From positions 1 to 26,735 of IMG/VR virus record IMGVR_UViG_2802429240_000009: a stretch of DNA of 26,735 bases; one strand, 5' to 3'. The stretch comes from a virus. Taxonomy: Duplodnaviria > Heunggongvirae > Uroviricota > Caudoviricetes. A program made the translations under genes and the position numbers. Below the pieces are notes generated by a model. The model saw only the letters and a list, made by a program, of their open reading frames with translations, was not told the origin of the DNA and made no database searches. Positions 5,919 to 19,472 of this stretch are shown in pieces. Position 1 is the first letter of the stretch. Every line of letters begins with the position of its first letter.

Positions 5919-6608
5919 CTACCCATGCTTCCTATATGTCTGCGGCATGCTCCCAATAACCTTACCGAAGATGAACACCCGGTTCATCTCGTCTTTCTCG
6001 ATCGGGTCCCACGGTGAGTAGCTTTTGTTATCAGAGATGACCAGCAGCTTATCCTTCATCATTTGCAGGCGCTTTACATGGGCTGTGTCGTCGTACAGAA
6101 ACGCATAGATACCATCACCGTCGAAAGATTTAACTGTGATATCAACGAACAGCAGATCACCTGGTTCGATCGTTCCTGACATGCTGTCACCACGCACGTT
6201 AATGATGCGGATATTTTCCGCCTTCCTACCATCGAACATGTGACGAGCATCGTCAAACGAGTACTCAACCGAGCGTAGAACTTCTACAAACTCACGGTTG
6301 ATGACTCCCGGCCCAGCACTGACTTCTATATCAAGAACGTCAATCTTGAAGTATTTGGAATGGCTGACAGTTGATTGTATTGGTTGCACTGTACTGTCTG
6401 ACATATTTCCAACGCCAGAAGATAACCATTCTGCGCGCACACCCAAAGCGTTCGCGATCTCCACGATTTTAGTTGTTTGATTAGCTTTCCCTGTTTCGAT
6501 TTTCTGAATAGCAGCCTGGCTAACCCCGACCAAATCCCCAAGCGCCTTTTGTGTAAGGCCTCGCGCTAATCTGGCTTCTTTAAGTCTTTCTGAGAGTGTT
6601 GTTTTCAT
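5919..6608 (-). CDS. cI: CI-type prophage repressor (N-terminal HTH plus C-terminal S24 LexA-like autopeptidase), 229 aa
   Basis: HTH region LTQKALGDLVGVSQAAIQKIETG, and Ser/Lys dyad context (VRGDSMSGTIEPGDLLFVD ... AHVKRL). The start at 6608 is preferred over the ORF-track start at 6674, which would overlap the pR -35 and operator. A pRM-like -10 lies 6 nt upstream, so the transcript is probably leaderless. Confidence 0.8.
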   Translation of the reverse strand: MKTTLSERLKEARLARGLTQKALGDLVGVSQAAIQKIETGKANQTTKIVEIANALGVRAEWLSSGVGNMSDSTVQPIQSTVSHSKYFKIDVLDIEVSAGPGVINREFVEVLRSVEYSFDDARHMFDGRKAENIRIINVRGDSMSGTIEPGDLLFVDITVKSFDGDGIYAFLYDDTAHVKRLQMMKDKLLVISDNKSYSPWDPIEKDEMNRVFIFGKVIGSMPQTYRKHG

Positions 6609-6614
6609 AGTCCA

Positions 6615-6685
6615 AATGTACAACCAAGGTTTTATTCCATCAAACGAAAATGGTTGTTGACTAAAAACAACCATAGTTTTAATCT
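6615..6685. promoter_or_regulatory. Divergent pRM/pR promoters with operator dyads (OR)
   Basis: pR on the plus strand: -35 TTGACT (6657-6662), 17-nt spacer, -10 TAATCT (6680-6685), then GGAGG and the cro ATG at 6713. pRM on the minus strand: -35 TTGATG (plus 6638-6643), -10 TACATT (plus 6615-6620). A perfect 9-bp-arm palindrome ATGGTTGTT-N7-AACAACCAT (6650-6674) overlaps the pR -35, and AAAACAACCATAGTTTT (6664-6680) fills the pR spacer. Confidence 0.6.
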
Positions 6686-14735: not shown

Positions 14736-14820
14736 AGTCAGAGATAACAATCAACTAATACTGTTTTGTTGATTTTTGCTTGTAATTGGCGTTCTGGTCT
14801 GAGTTTTGTGGAGTAAGTTG

Positions 14821-15198
14821 ATGCGTGATATTCAGATGGTTCTTGAGCGTTGGGGAGCGTGGGCGGCTAATAATCATGAAGATGTGACCTGGTCGTCCAT
14901 TGCCGCCGGTTTTAAGGGATTAATTCCTTCAAAAGTAAAATCTCGCCCGCAATGTTGTGACGATGACGCGATGATCATTTGCGGGTGCATGGCCCGTCTG
15001 AAAAAGAACAACAGCGATTTGCATGATTTATTGGTGGACTATTATGTCGGCGGCATGACTTTTATGGCGCTTGCACGTAAGCATGGGCGATCTGATTGTT
15101 GGGTTGGCAGGATGCTCCAGAAAGCTGAGGGCGTAGTGGAGGGTATGCTGATGGTGTTGGATCTCCGATTGGAGATGGATGCTGATTGTTCGAAATAA
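14821..15198 (+). CDS. Q: Late-gene antiterminator Q (phage-82/DLP12 QuuD type), 125 aa
   Basis: [35 protein letters not shown]...[12 protein letters not shown] matches the Q82 family. GGAG lies 7 nt upstream of the ATG at 14821. The ORF-track start at 14806 is a TTG extension. Confidence 0.9.
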
Positions 15199-15210
15199 TT
15201 AAAGGAAAAG

Positions 15211-15239
15211 TTGCTGTCTGATTCTCATTAGTCTAACAT
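15211..15239 (+). promoter_or_regulatory. Candidate late promoter pR' (with the Q-utilisation region just downstream)
   Basis: -35 TTGCTG (15211-15216), 17-nt spacer, -10 TAACAT (15234-15239). It is positioned immediately after Q and about 80 nt upstream of a strong terminator, as expected for pR'/tR'. Confidence 0.4.
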
Positions 15240-15296
15240 TTTAAATGTTGGAATCGCAACGTAGTTATTATCATATAACAGCTTGTTTCCTGATTT

Positions 15297-15325
15297 AGCC
15301 AGCCTCCCCAAAGGCTGGTTTTTTT
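15297..15325 (+). terminator. Strong intrinsic terminator (tR'-like) downstream of Q
   Basis: CCAGCCT (15299-15305), loop CCCCAA, AGGCTGG (15312-15318), followed by seven T residues (15319-15325). Confidence 0.65.
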
Positions 15326-15353
15326 CTAATAAGTATTATTTCGGGTAGGGATT

Positions 15354-15878
15354 TTATTGTTTAACCCATAATAATTCATTGACATTGAATCCCAACTTTT
15401 GAGCGGTTCGCACATAGTCTGCTTTTACTTTATCTGGAATAGTTGGGGTCCTTGCCAGAATCCATAGGTATTCTCTGTTCGGACCACTGACAAGAGCATA
15501 CTTATACTCATCATCCAGTTTGATTACATTATAGCCACCATAGAAGGGGCCAAAAAACGAAACCTTCAACGCTGCAGTTTTAGTATCTCCAGTAAAGTAT
15601 GCTTTACCTTCGCTCTCGCTCCATTTATTTTTCGTTGGATCGTATCCACGGTTAAGTACACGAATCCCTCCGTCGTTCCGTTTTCCATAGGTAGCGCTGA
15701 CCTGTTCCAGACCACGTTCGAACCGGTTCTCGAGGCGAGCTATTTCATACCATTTTCCGAGGTAGCGGTTGGCGTCAAAATTTGTAATCGGCTGCACACC
15801 TTTAGGTGGTGTCGGGGCCTTACATGCTATAAGAGTGAAAGAGAGTGCAATGCCAGTCAACACAGGCCATAACTTCAT
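15354..15878 (-). CDS. Bacterial lipocalin (Blc-like) outer-membrane lipoprotein, 174 aa
   Basis: Lipoprotein signal peptide with lipobox (MKLWPVLTGIALSFTLIAC). Lipocalin motifs (NFDANRYLGKWYEIARLENRFERGLE, KVSFFGPFYGGYNVI, YLWILARTP) resemble E. coli Blc as recalled. Opposite strand to the late operon and AT-rich. Confidence 0.8.
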   Translation of the reverse strand: MKLWPVLTGIALSFTLIACKAPTPPKGVQPITNFDANRYLGKWYEIARLENRFERGLEQVSATYGKRNDGGIRVLNRGYDPTKNKWSESEGKAYFTGDTKTAALKVSFFGPFYGGYNVIKLDDEYKYALVSGPNREYLWILARTPTIPDKVKADYVRTAQKLGFNVNELLWVKQ

Positions 15879-15910
15879 AATAAATCCTGTACTTTTGATA
15901 GTTGAGAGTA

Positions 15911-15960
15911 AGTATGAAAGATAGATGATTACGACCGATCACTTAAAGAACTTTCATACT
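15911..15960. promoter_or_regulatory. 10-bp inverted repeat (AGTATGAAAG-N30-CTTTCATACT) in the divergent promoter region
   Basis: Read directly from the sequence. It lies between the lipocalin gene start (15878) and the DUF523/DUF1722 gene start (16071). Confidence 0.3.
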
Positions 15961-16070
15961 ATATTAGGAATAGTCTATAACAGAAAAATTGTCAGTGATG
16001 ACGCCAGAAAGGCAATTTATTCCGTGCACTACACAGTTTATGTGTTAATGAATTAGTCAAGGGGGAGAAT

Positions 16071-17030
16071 ATGATAAAAAAACCTGTGATTGGAATCAGC
16101 GGTTGTTTGGCCGGCTCTGCTGTTCGTTTTGATGGTGGTCACAAAAGAGCTGACTTTTTAATGGACAAATTAGTGGAATGGGTAACATTCAGACCAGTAT
16201 GTCCGGAAATGGCTATAGGGCTGCCAGTTCCGCGTCCTGCTCTACGTCTTGTGCGCTCGACGCAAGGAAATATACGGATGTGTTTCAGCCACGACCAGAA
16301 TGAGGATGTGACAGAGAGAATGACAGAGTTTAGTCGTTCTTATATGGACAAATTAAAGGATGTATCGGGGTTTGTGGTTTGTGCTAAATCTCCCAGCTGT
16401 GGCATGGAGCGCGTGCGTGTCTATGATGAAAATGGTAATCGAGGTCGTAAAGATGGAGTGGGACTATTTACGAGCACTTTGATGGAAAAGTTTTCCTGGC
16501 TACCGGTTGAAGAGGATGGGCGATTACATGATCCAGTGCTTCGTGAGAATTTTGTTGAAAGAGTTTTTGCTTTGCATGAGCTCAATCACCTTTACAAGGA
16601 GAAATTATCAAGAAGAGAGTTATTAGCTTTTCATAGTCGTTATAAGCTTCAGTTGTTGGCGCATAGTCAGGCAGGCTATAAAGATATGGGACCATTTGTG
16701 GCTGCAATACACGAGTGGGCGGACCTTGAATCATACTTTGAGGTGTATCGTGATAAGCTGATGGCGATTCTCAGAAAACCTGCATCACGTAAAAATCACA
16801 CGAATGTGCTGATGCATATACAGGGGTATTTTAGTAACTACTTAAGTACACGCCAGCGTAAAGAGTTGAGCGAGGTTATACTTAACTATCGTTCTGGCAC
16901 ATTACCTCTTCTTGCGCCGTTGACTCTGCTGAAGCATTATCTGGGTGAGTATCCTAATGATTACTTGCTTACACAGAATTACTTCGCTCCCTATCCGGAC
17001 GAACTGGCTCTAAGACTGATGGTAAATTAA
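16071..17030 (+). CDS. DUF523 (TudS-like, Cys-ligated Fe-S) / DUF1722 (YbgA-like) fusion protein, 319 aa
   Basis: N-terminal half has conserved Cys residues in a DUF523-like arrangement (GISGCLAG, VCPE, CAKSPSCG). The C-terminal half resembles YbgA/DUF1722 (ELLAFHSRYKLQLLAHS). GGGGGAG Shine-Dalgarno. This is a family assignment from memory. Confidence 0.65.
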   Translation: MIKKPVIGISGCLAGSAVRFDGGHKRADFLMDKLVEWVTFRPVCPEMAIGLPVPRPALRLVRSTQGNIRMCFSHDQNEDVTERMTEFSRSYMDKLKDVSGFVVCAKSPSCGMERVRVYDENGNRGRKDGVGLFTSTLMEKFSWLPVEEDGRLHDPVLRENFVERVFALHELNHLYKEKLSRRELLAFHSRYKLQLLAHSQAGYKDMGPFVAAIHEWADLESYFEVYRDKLMAILRKPASRKNHTNVLMHIQGYFSNYLSTRQRKELSEVILNYRSGTLPLLAPLTLLKHYLGEYPNDYLLTQNYFAPYPDELALRLMVN

Positions 17031-17372
17031 TTGTATGCGATATCATCCAAAAGGATGAGTTCCTGCATGCAAGATATTTACAATCGTAAAAACTACACTA
17101 TGATACCCAGAGTGTCAGTTTGTATAAAAACTCTGTTTACGCTGAAGAAACCATTGAGATGCAACTTAAAGTTGGTAAACATGCCAGTCAAAATATATAA
17201 TATTATGATTCCACGCAGCTATATATAATATAACAGATTGGTTTAATAATTTGTCTTTGTGAGTTAAATACATAATTTTATACTTGTGATGCAATGAGAT
17301 TTTCCTTATTGTTGAACTGGCGAATATTGATTTTCCACCTATACTTACCTGGTGTAACCCCAATGATATCAG

Positions 17373-18113
17373 GTGGATAATATGCCATACATATGTTCTA
17401 TCATTTTGGTGTTGAACTCGTTTGATGTCCGAATTGGTAAAGAAGATATTTTGTTTAAAAAAGGAAGTGCTGTTCTCATTGATTACAATTTAAAAGATTT
17501 TTTTTCATCAAATATAGATCATGTAATGATCGTAGATGTTGAAGAGAAAACAGTTAATGATTTCTTTAAAAGCAACACACTCTCACCTTTTTCTGTAAGA
17601 AGGTTTTATCCGGCATACTTGATGGTGGAATGTGAAGATTTTTCATTGTTAAAGAACTTGATTGCATGCTTGAATTGTGATGGCAGAACTGTGGATTTTG
17701 TTAGAAATCAAATATCACTTGCATGTCTTGCTATCTTATCTTCAGAGAAAATAGTGCAAAGTTTTTTATTTGGATGTCTTAATAGTTTAGGAAGTAAAGT
17801 TAAGGCTATTATTCACACGGATATATCTGCAGCATGGAGACTTTGTGATATATCTTCAAGACTGTATCTGAGTGAAAGTCTGTTAAAAAGAAAATTAAAG
17901 CACGAAGGCTTATCATTTAGTAAGTTAATTCTTGAAGAGCGAATGGTGATGGCGGAAAGGTTATTAAGCTACAATTTATATTCTGTTGGAAAAGTTGCTG
18001 AGATATGCGGTTATGAAAACACGTCATATTTTGTAAGTGTTTTCAGAAGATATTTTGGTGTTCCTCCCCATCAATATTCATCAAGACTTTTTTTAGAAAA
18101 AGACATGATGTAA
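17373..18113 (+). CDS. AraC/XylS-family transcriptional regulator (246 aa)
   Basis: C-terminal double HTH of the AraC family (VGKVAEICGYENTSYFVSVFRRYFGVPPHQY). Very AT-rich, with an AT-rich 340-bp upstream region. Confidence 0.8.
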   Translation: MDNMPYICSIILVLNSFDVRIGKEDILFKKGSAVLIDYNLKDFFSSNIDHVMIVDVEEKTVNDFFKSNTLSPFSVRRFYPAYLMVECEDFSLLKNLIACLNCDGRTVDFVRNQISLACLAILSSEKIVQSFLFGCLNSLGSKVKAIIHTDISAAWRLCDISSRLYLSESLLKRKLKHEGLSFSKLILEERMVMAERLLSYNLYSVGKVAEICGYENTSYFVSVFRRYFGVPPHQYSSRLFLEKDMM

Positions 18114-18174
18114 CGTGATGCGTTTTAATGATTTTGTAATTTTCGTATTTAATAATTGTATGATGCTTTCAGCT

Positions 18175-18206
18175 ACGCCAGAATAATCGCTGGCGTTTTT
18201 CTTTTT
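18175..18206 (+). terminator. Intrinsic terminator after the AraC-family gene
   Basis: ACGCCAG (18175-18181), 8-nt loop, CTGGCGT (18190-18196), followed by TTTTTCTTTTT. Confidence 0.6.
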
Positions 18207-18301
18207 GAATAGATGTTCAAGCCTTACGCTAATGTAACTTCTATACCTTTCCTCTTCGTTCCGAACCGTGTACACCATCCGTTATTTGCGGAGGTGAGGC
18301 T

Positions 18302-18517
18302 ATGAAATCCATGGATAAGTTAACAACGGGCATTGCCTACGGCACCTCCGCAGGCAGTGCTGGCTACTGGTTTTTACAGCTGCTCGATAAAGTCACGCCC
18401 TCACAGTGGGCAGCAATAGGTGTGCTGGGTAGCTTGGTATTTGGCTTGCTGACGTACCTGACAAACCTTTATTTCAAGATTAAAGAAGATAAGCGCAAGG
18501 CTGCGAGAGGTGAATAA
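18302..18517 (+). CDS. S: Phage-21-type pinholin S (71 aa) with dual-start motif
   Basis: [26 protein letters not shown]... matches S21 as recalled. Met1/Met4 give the antiholin/holin dual start. Confidence 0.9.
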
Positions 18518-19014
18518 TGCCTCCATCATTACGAAAAGCCGTTGCTGCTGCTATTGGTGGCGGAGCAATTGCTATAGCATCAGTGTTAATCACTGGCTCA
18601 AGTGGTAACGATGGTCTGGAGGGTGTCAGCTACATACCATACAAAGATATTGTTGGTGTATGGACTGTATGTCACGGGCATACAGGAAAAGACATCATGC
18701 TCGGTAAAACGTATACCAAAGCAGAATGCAAAGCCCTCCTGAATAAAGACCTTGCCACGGTCGCCAGACAAATTAACCCGTACATAAAAGTTGATATACC
18801 GGAAACAACGCGCGGCGCTCTTTACTCGTTCGTTTACAACGTGGGCGCTGGCAATTTCAGAATATCGACGCTTCTTCGCAAAATAAACCAGGGCGATATC
18901 AAAGGCGCATGTGATCAGCTACGTCGCTGGACATATGCTGGCGGTAAGCAATGGAAAGGTCTCATGACTCGTCGTGAGATTGAGCGTGAAATCTGTTTGT
19001 GGGGTCAGCAATGA
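18517..19014 (+). CDS. R: SAR endolysin (R21-type lysozyme), 165 aa
   Basis: N-terminal Gly/Ala-rich signal-anchor-release segment ([20 protein letters not shown]) followed by a lysozyme domain. The start overlaps the S stop. Confidence 0.9.
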
Positions 19015-19472
19015 ACAGAGTAACCGCGATTATCTCCGCTCTGGTTATCTGCATCATCGTCTGCCTGTCATGGGCTGTTAATCATTACCGTGATAACGCC
19101 ATTACCTACAAAGCCCAGCGCGACAAAAATGCCAGAGAACTGAAGCTGGCGAACGCGGCAATTACTGACATGCAGATGCGCCAGCGTGATGTTGCTGCAC
19201 TGGATGAAAAATACACGAAGGAGTTAGCTAATGCGAAAGCTGAAAATGATGCTCTGCGTGATGATGTTGCCGCTGGTCGTCGTCGGTTGCACATCAAAGC
19301 AGTCTGTCAGTCAGTGCGTGAAGCCACCACCGCCTCCGGCGTGGATAATGCAGCCTCCCCCCGACTGGCAGACACCGCTGAACGGGATTATTTCACCCTC
19401 AGAGAGAGGCTGATCACTATGCAAAAACAACTGGAAGGAACCCAGAAGTATATTAATGAGCAGTGCAGATAG
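19011..19472 (+). CDS. Rz: Spanin inner-membrane subunit Rz (153 aa)
   Basis: The ATG overlaps the R stop (ATGA). N-terminal TM segment and coiled-coil-like remainder. Rz1 is embedded in the +1 frame. Confidence 0.85.
19231..19413 (+). CDS. Rz1: Spanin outer-membrane lipoprotein Rz1 (60 aa), embedded in Rz
   Basis: Lipobox (LVVVGC) followed by a proline-rich stretch ([15 protein letters not shown]), lying entirely inside Rz in another frame. Confidence 0.8.

Follow-up and report, generated by a model that had tools for sequence, protein, structure and literature searches.

A predicted tRNA 4-thiouridine desulfidase (RudS) among the late genes of a lambdoid Escherichia coli prophage

The window analysed here is a stretch of 26,735 nucleotides of tailed-phage DNA in which an open reading frame, located among the late genes of a DLP12-type prophage, is predicted to be an intact prophage copy of RudS, the tRNA 4-thiouridine (s4U) desulfidase. 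This identification is drawn from the sequence, as the fusion of a TudS domain to a DUF1722 domain defines the RudS family. In the fuller explanation, which is considered very probable, the gene specifies a functional RudS that acts on the s4U of intact tRNA and is carried as cargo in the slot between Q and S, with late expression and a UVA effect; within this explanation, the sequence and model data show the architecture with its catalytic residues, the fold, the close identity to a tested enzyme, purifying selection and a window devoid of MerR, while how the gene is expressed and what advantage it brings are the parts that we infer. The enzyme activity is already known for this phage lineage and has little weight as a discovery.

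Domain architecture and catalytic residues

The rudS coding sequence (positions 16071 to 17030, plus strand) is a single ATG-to-stop open reading frame that encodes a TudS-DUF1722 fusion of 319 aa; it is supported by Pfam, by identity to the phage enzyme RudS_vir and by RefSeq, and has a Shine-Dalgarno-like GGGGGAG run immediately 5' of the ATG. The TudS/DUF523 catalytic domain (aa 7-149; 16089 to 16517, plus strand) is delimited by PF04463 (2-thiour_desulf, formerly DUF523; profile 1-141 of 141, E = 3.1e-40, 137.9 bits), residue conservation and the AlphaFold2 model, while the DUF1722 helical domain (aa 192-309; 16644 to 16997, plus strand) is delimited by PF08349 (profile 1-117 of 117, E = 2.6e-40, 137.8 bits), an all-helical fold in the model and residue mapping. 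Both Pfam scores are well above the gathering cut-offs, and these full-length matches (each E about 1e-40) bear out the DUF523/DUF1722 assignment made in an earlier, sequence-only reading of the gene. The two domains reside in one uninterrupted polypeptide, which is the architecture of RudS; the 319-aa protein with its fused DUF1722 differs from a stand-alone TudS, which is a single domain of about 150-170 aa.

RefSeq names the protein a 'YbgA family protein' (WP_000592545.1, strain SCU-102), PHROGs lists the product as of unknown function, and the sole NCBIfam match is to the YbgA model PRK10167 (aa 160-315, E = 2e-56). YbgA of E. coli (b0707) is a stand-alone DUF1722 protein of unknown function that is encoded beside photolyase; it is homologous to the C-terminal half of the window protein but is devoid of the catalytic domain. 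A YbgA-like role in which the N-terminal domain is catalytically irrelevant, as might be read from the RefSeq name and the PRK10167 match to the C-terminal half, is scarcely credible: the match spans only aa 160-315 and, at 190.3 bits, falls below the equivalog cut-off of 237, the complete set of N-terminal catalytic residues is conserved, and overexpression of YbgA is without effect on s4U (PMC11417400).

Residue conservation is based on an alignment of 145 sequences, comprising the window protein and 144 homologues of 37-76% identity; these homologues were taken from the 6548 matches at E <= 1e-3 among 1.84 billion representatives. The predicted [4Fe-4S] ligands include C12 and C44, each the same residue in 143 of the 145 sequences, and C110, which is part of an SPSCG motif and is the same residue in 141; this numbering matches that of RudS_vir and RudS_ST in Table 1 of PMC11417400. 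Among the predicted catalytic residues, E46 and S107 are each retained in 144/145, R55 in 143/145 and S109 in 136/145. The conserved cysteines noticed earlier in the N-terminal half are, thus, present as C12, C44 and C110. Of these, C12 and C44 pair by phmmer with C10 and C43 of TudS (PDB 6Z92), as do E46 and R55 with E45 and a conserved Arg; no PDB matches other than TudS are found by phmmer. Sequence alignment to TudS does not extend to C110, as phmmer and a 26-sequence profile cover only the first ~60 TudS residues, and C110 is instead assigned as a ligand from three other lines: the Pfam match over the full profile, conservation within the family, and the structural match by Foldseek. Based on these ligand residues, the window protein is predicted to bind an oxygen-labile [4Fe-4S] cluster.

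An AlphaFold2 model of the window protein, generated from 95 sequences, has a mean pLDDT of 96.3 and a pTM of 0.92. When the model is compared to the PDB by Foldseek, only TudS entries are significant (five, including 6z92, 6z93, 6z96 and 6zw9; probability 1.0), with TM-scores of 0.71-0.76 to the TudS crystal structures as normalised to the TudS target, which corresponds to the N-terminal half; the helical DUF1722 half has no Foldseek match in the PDB. The catalytic fold and the ligand and catalytic motifs are, thus, common to the window protein and TudS (DUF523Vcz, PDB 6Z92/6Z96), although TudS is only 26-27% identical to the window protein and does not have a DUF1722 domain.

RudS_KT (Pseudomonas putida PP_0741), the reference of the family that has been characterised by biochemistry and mutagenesis, shares the two-domain architecture, and equivalents of its C17, C49, C114, E51, R60, S111, S113, R24, G27, S243 and R244 are all present in the window protein. 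In RudS_KT, residues E51, S111, S113 and R60 are essential and residues S243 and R244 of DUF1722 are important (PMC11417400). The RudS_KT numbering was transferred by way of P0149, a homologue of matching numbering that is ~41% identical to the window protein and serves as a stand-in for the RudS_KT sequence itself, being the best proxy at 19 of 36 RudS_KT fingerprint residues; the mapping of E152, R155, N202 and N203 looks shifted in this proxy alignment and is unreliable. By the same register-matched proxy, S239/R240 are the equivalents of S243/R244 and are invariant in 26 enterobacterial and phage sequences, while among the 145 diverse sequences the first position is S/T in 119 and the second is R in 88. 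R19 and G22 are the equivalents of R24 and G27, N26 of RudS_KT is D in the window protein, and F20 occupies the position of Y25, a residue for which the Y25F substitution is neutral in RudS_KT (PMC11417400).

Activity of RudS enzymes and the proposed tRNA substrate

RudS is a TudS-DUF1722 [4Fe-4S] desulfidase that converts the s4U8 of tRNA to U (Jamontas et al., Nucleic Acids Res 2024, PMC11417400). Each of six RudS orthologues decreases tRNA s4U (by 4.7- to 26-fold) when overexpressed in E. coli, whereas stand-alone TudS and E. coli YbgA are without effect in the same overexpression set (PMC11417400). One of the six, RudS_vir, is encoded by gene H3V29_gp66 of the lambdoid coliphage 1H12 and significantly reduces s4U in E. 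coli tRNA as monitored by LC-MS/MS after overexpression; its C12A, C44A and C110A mutants were constructed, and the RudS Cys mutants are inactive with the exception of one Thermus variant (PMC11417400). The published RudS activity data are from plasmid overexpression throughout and include no lysogen or induced prophage (PMC11417400).

RudS_vir (1H12 gp66, YP_009909557.1) and the window protein are both of 319 aa and align gap-free with 298/319 residues identical (93%); of the 21 substitutions, none is at a catalytic or ligand position. While RudS_vir is from an isolated phage, the window rudS is from a DLP12-type prophage. The sequence-only reading did not know this type of activity to be described for lambdoid prophages, an impression that is corrected by the tests of the 93% identical RudS_vir reported in 2024 (PMC11417400). 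Its suggestion that tRNA s4U is the substrate fares better, in that the RudS family erases tRNA s4U experimentally (PMC11417400) and the window allele is predicted from its sequence to do the same.

In the proposed mechanism, the TudS domain would hold the [4Fe-4S] cluster on C12, C44 and C110, and the free fourth iron would take the sulfur of 4-thiouridine. E46, placed by R55, S107 and S109, would activate a water molecule, with oxygen replacing sulfur to form uridine. The DUF1722 helical domain, as the proposed binding module, would dock the tRNA near the anticodon arm; because of this docking, the enzyme is expected to act on s4U8 (and s4U9) of the intact tRNA and not on free bases.

An alternative function is TudS-like salvage, in which free 4-thiouracil, 4-thiouridine or 4-thio-UMP from tRNA turnover would be recycled for phage replication. 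The catalytic domain of the window protein is indeed a TudS domain, and TudS is a stand-alone [4Fe-4S] enzyme that desulfurates thiouracil/4-thio-UMP and is inactive on tRNA in vivo. Two properties of RudS_vir are also in line with salvage, namely the rescue of a uracil auxotroph (pyrF) on 4-thiouracil after a lag that is the shortest of the six RudS, and a tRNA desulfidation that is lower than predicted by a relatively high level of soluble protein (PMC11417400). Salvage is nevertheless unlikely, as tRNA s4U is significantly reduced by RudS_vir and not by stand-alone TudS, none of the RudS equals TudS as a rescuer of growth or supports growth on 2-thiouracil (PMC11417400), and the DUF1722 domain (including S239/R240), which would be needless for a free-base enzyme, is under strong purifying selection. 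The thiolated nucleotide pools that were put forward earlier as an alternative target are, thus, retained as at most a side activity, which for RudS_vir extends to 4-thiouracil (after a lag) and not to 2-thiouracil. Within the preferred reading of RudS as an enzyme of intact tRNA, the form found in this phage lineage may be weaker or broader than other RudS, since RudS_vir desulfidates tRNA less and has the shortest lag on 4-thiouracil.

The Q-S cargo slot and the probable origin of the cassette

The gene order of the window (YbcO, RusA, Q, Blc-like on the minus strand, rudS, AraC-like, holin, lysozyme and Rz) is that of a lambdoid late region, and rudS has the orientation of Q and the lysis genes. 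The phage late setting that was previously perceived is, thus, upheld by Q upstream and holin/lysozyme/Rz downstream of rudS. Phage 1H12, which is also among the DNA-level matches, has the same order, with Q followed by a Blc lipocalin (minus strand), gp66, a 243-aa hypothetical protein (the AraC-like gene) and holin. In the window, the late antiterminator gene Q (14806 to 15198, plus strand; PF06530, E = 2.5e-51; RefSeq start equivalent to 14821) is directly followed by a terminator-like hairpin with a T-run (15297 to 15330, plus strand; consensus scan), which lies between Q and blc, is unchanged in three alleles, and is a candidate for the tR' of the late promoter module. Sigma-70-like matches are not enriched in the region (13 compared to 10.3 +/- 3.4 in shuffled sequence), and the late promoter pR' was not located.

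The Blc-like gene (15354 to 15878, minus strand) encodes an outer-membrane lipocalin lipoprotein of 174 aa (PF08212, E = 7e-44) that scores 316 bits against the NCBIfam Blc subfamily, for which the cut-off is 267. It is divergent from rudS and separated from it by an AT-rich spacer of 192 bp (15879 to 16070), which is presumed from its sequence to be the site of any own promoters, is 95% conserved in four alleles, and has only weak promoter-like matches. A perfect inverted repeat of 10 nt in this spacer was considered and set aside as probably due to chance, as no co-variation of its arms is seen in other alleles. No LexA box is detected upstream of rudS, the single match with one mismatch (16084) being within the coding region. 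Downstream of rudS, the third gene of the cassette (17373 to 18113, plus strand; PF12833, PF00165) encodes an AraC/YdeO-like regulator, is of very low GC content (~31%), has YdeO as its best NCBIfam match (below the cut-off of that model), and specifies a protein 54% identical to an AraC regulator of an O157:H7 prophage. A second terminator-like hairpin (18175 to 18206, plus strand; consensus scan) is positioned between the AraC-like and holin genes, and the lysis cassette of holin, lysozyme and Rz (18302 to 19472, plus strand; PF04971, PF00959, PF03245) bounds the Q-S cargo slot on its downstream side. Scans of the window for Rfam families and tRNAs give no matches.

Lambdoid late operons are laid out as the Q gene, pR'-tR', cargo and S-R-Rz, with stx of the Stx phages placed likewise. 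By analogy, rudS would be read through under Q antitermination, as 'moron' cargo that a DLP12/lambda-type prophage carries in its Q-S slot. Strong transcription after induction is expected from this read-through since rudS is co-oriented with, and downstream of, the expected late promoter; low-level expression of rudS in lysogens may also occur. In DLP12 (K-12-like) of BL21(DE3), the slot of rudS is instead occupied by an nmpC porin gene that is split by IS1, and the Q-proximal and holin-proximal spacers of the window are not alignable with those of this prophage because the Q type differs. Mathieu et al. (2020) describe blc as a frequent lambda moron, and their passages on lipocalin, blc and morons do not discuss the adjoining gene.

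The relatives of the window RudS suggest where the cassette came from. The enterobacterial RudS of chromosomes and plasmids (including the Salmonella ORF319/RudS_ST type) share a length of 319 aa and 70-76% identity with the window protein, and the closest relatives outside of E. coli are chromosomal (Citrobacter at 76%; Serratia, Klebsiella, Enterobacter and Salmonella at 70-74%; all 319 aa). Their genes are found in several contexts: (i) in Citrobacter and Klebsiella, rudS is the last gene of an SDR/amine oxidase/DUF1365/CFA-synthase-like/DUF2878/DUF3833 operon, (ii) in a Serratia-type contig, a lipocalin gene (minus strand) precedes MerR-MlrA-like and then rudS, (iii) in E. cloacae, rudS is flanked by MerR and an AAA ATPase, and (iv) on the E. 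coli plasmid pCFSAN061762, a truncated lipocalin (minus strand) is followed by MerR, uraH, rudS and an AAA ATPase. By contrast, the phage rudS has neither the MerR/MlrA-like neighbour nor the SDR-to-DUF3833 operon of the enterobacterial copies. Similarly, while the rudS of Pseudomonas is located in a light-inducible operon with LitR and photolyase (PMC11417400), neither a MerR/LitR regulator nor photolyase is encoded near the window rudS. A MerR homologue is not detected in the whole 26.7-kb window, nor is a remnant of merR or uraH by tblastn; a MAFFT alignment, inspected for a retained MerR promoter in the spacer, hints at a shared TA(C/G)TATATT segment, but tblastn and blastn-short give nothing significant. 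Identity of the phage Blc to the rudS-linked lipocalins of Serratia and the E. coli plasmid amounts to 77-80%, compared to only 60% for the chromosomal Blc of K-12. In the simplest reading of these sequences, blc and rudS were probably captured jointly from an enterobacterial lipocalin/MerR/rudS locus with loss of the MerR-type regulator.

Distribution, selection and proposed role in lysogens

The rudS gene is widespread in E. coli. Among 5426 complete genomes, 1183 (~22%) contain it, 1111 of them at a coverage of at least 80%, and it has 1202 chromosomal and 60 plasmid locations; the 3.1-kb cassette is found in 1156 of the 5426. The RudS paper states that E. coli lacks RudS and makes no mention of prophages (PMC11417400), and the same is said in a 2026 review. 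Such an absence is true of K-12 and B strains and false for ~22% of complete genomes. The lack of RudS in laboratory strains is explained by nmpC occupying this slot, as in DLP12 of BL21(DE3).

A relative is also found on 153 viral contigs of IMG/VR. Of the best 80 of these 153 loci, all have an intact 319-aa open reading frame with all nine key residues (22 protein alleles), and 71 retain the full order of Q, blc, rudS, AraC-like and holin. The rudS alleles of the window and 1H12 differ at 8% of nucleotides (dN = 0.032, dS = 0.297, dN/dS = 0.108), while blc has a dN/dS of 0.06 in the same comparison. The gene is under purifying selection and is not debris.

These data bear on whether rudS is a silent, functionless passenger of a decaying cryptic prophage, kept by its position between essential phage modules. 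The SCU-102 prophage, which bears an identical cassette, is defective (with a truncated capsid gene and an insertion of another element), the adjoining AraC-like gene is often frameshifted or parted from rudS by IS elements, and the AT-rich region may be silenced by H-NS, all of which fit such a passenger. The reading is, however, very improbable given a dN/dS of 0.11 over substantial synonymous divergence and the intact reading frame in 80/80 of the best IMG/VR loci. Moreover, the cassette is also carried by plaque-forming temperate phages from infant stool (1H12 and related Lambda_* phages), and the IS insertions strike the flank and spare rudS itself.

With rudS regarded as a functional gene, its proposed effect is on the host response to near-UV light. 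In RudS-expressing cells, tRNA would lose s4U, the near-UV photosensor, and UVA-triggered tRNA cross-linking would be blunted, along with the growth delay and stringent response. Expression of RudS_KT reduces the UVA growth delay (PMC11417400). The proposed loss of the MerR switch that controls chromosomal rudS and the expected placement on the Q late transcript raise the tentative and rather doubtful possibility that the prophage RudS is deregulated, such that it either erases s4U8 at induction or confers sunlight tolerance on lysogens. Lambdoid prophages are classically induced by UV light. Were s4U8 erased upon UV induction, tRNA would escape cross-linking, neither growth delay nor the stringent response would follow, and the synthesis of late proteins could continue; alternatively, low expression in the lysogen could endow roughly a fifth of E. 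coli strains with sunlight tolerance, a trait that the field at present takes this species to lack.

An intact prophage rudS that is under selection is, thus, harboured by ~22% of complete E. coli genomes under the label 'YbgA family protein', and the choice of strain could be a confounder wherever s4U, UVA growth delay or 4-thiouridine labelling is studied in natural isolates. As an eraser of tRNA modification that resides in a late operon without its usual regulator, the prophage rudS would provide a tractable system for asking whether a temperate phage alters the tRNA modification of its host at induction.

Contents and sequence signals of the Q-to-holin slot

The contents of the slot between the late-gene antiterminator gene Q and the holin gene vary among DLP12-type prophages (comparison locus L096 12552-15788 vs 14806-18517 of the window). 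The DLP12 slot of BL21(DE3), represented by L096, holds an nmpC porin gene split by IS1, whereas that of the window holds blc, rudS and the AraC-like gene; the spacers flanking the slot could not be aligned between these two types. A terminator-like hairpin of 9 pairs followed by a run of seven T residues lies about 100 nt past the Q stop codon (15297-15320), is unchanged in three alleles that otherwise diverge and is a candidate for tR', the terminator of the late promoter module.

The blc-rudS intergenic region includes a perfect 10-nt inverted repeat (AGTATGAAAG at 15911-15920 and CTTTCATACT at 15951-15960) with a 30-nt spacer. Both arms are altered in other alleles by changes that do not restore the pairing; thus, the repeat is probably due to chance. 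A scan of the whole window for the LexA-box core (CTGT-N8-ACAG, up to 1 mismatch) finds 16 matches, compared to 8.3 +/- 2.5 expected, with none upstream of rudS. The sole perfect match (6083-6098) resides within a repressor-like ORF (5919-6674).

The AraC/YdeO-like gene and damage to the cassette

The third gene of the cassette (17373-18113, + strand, GC ~31%) encodes an AraC/YdeO-like regulator; of the 5426 E. coli genomes, 1608 carry homologues. The protein shares 54% full-length identity with an AraC regulator of an E. coli O157:H7 prophage (L011 5664-6407), which is located at ~333 kb and, by this position, may be the acid-resistance regulator PatE of OI-8. Insertions of IS2, IS3 or IS911, as well as frameshifts, recurrently disrupt the AraC-like gene and the gap that separates it from rudS (L004 6279-7011, L005 6168-7396 and the database DNA matches H5, H15 and H16); in these same loci, rudS and blc are undamaged.

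Genomic settings and fusions of rudS

A distinct rudS lineage (70% amino-acid identity) is found at 60 places on E. coli plasmids. It is exemplified by pCFSAN061762 (L003, NZ_CP042902.1 77542-81520), in which a truncated lipocalin gene (- strand) is followed by MerR-MlrA-like, uraH, rudS and AAA ATPase genes, and the block adjoins IS26 and a class 1 integron.

Two fusions are noted, each in a single database protein: (i) P0002 (E. coli, 403 aa), in which a 99%-identical RudS is joined to a GGDEF domain (PF00990) on one contig and which could be an artefact of assembly or gene calling, and (ii) P0006 (500 aa), in which DUF3833 is fused to RudS. A DUF3833 gene also occurs in Citrobacter and Klebsiella (L006-L008 and L013), where rudS closes a conserved operon and is preceded by genes for an SDR, an amine oxidase, DUF1365, a CFA-synthase-like protein, DUF2878, a 175-aa protein without a Pfam match, and DUF3833. 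On Salmonella enterica contigs (L009 and L010), the gene for a 73% identical RudS lies beside dbpA and ttcA, the tRNA 2-thiocytidine synthase gene, and is followed downstream by a DUF1367 phage-type gene and then by Usp and porin genes; this neighbourhood resembles what is left of a prophage at the ttcA site.
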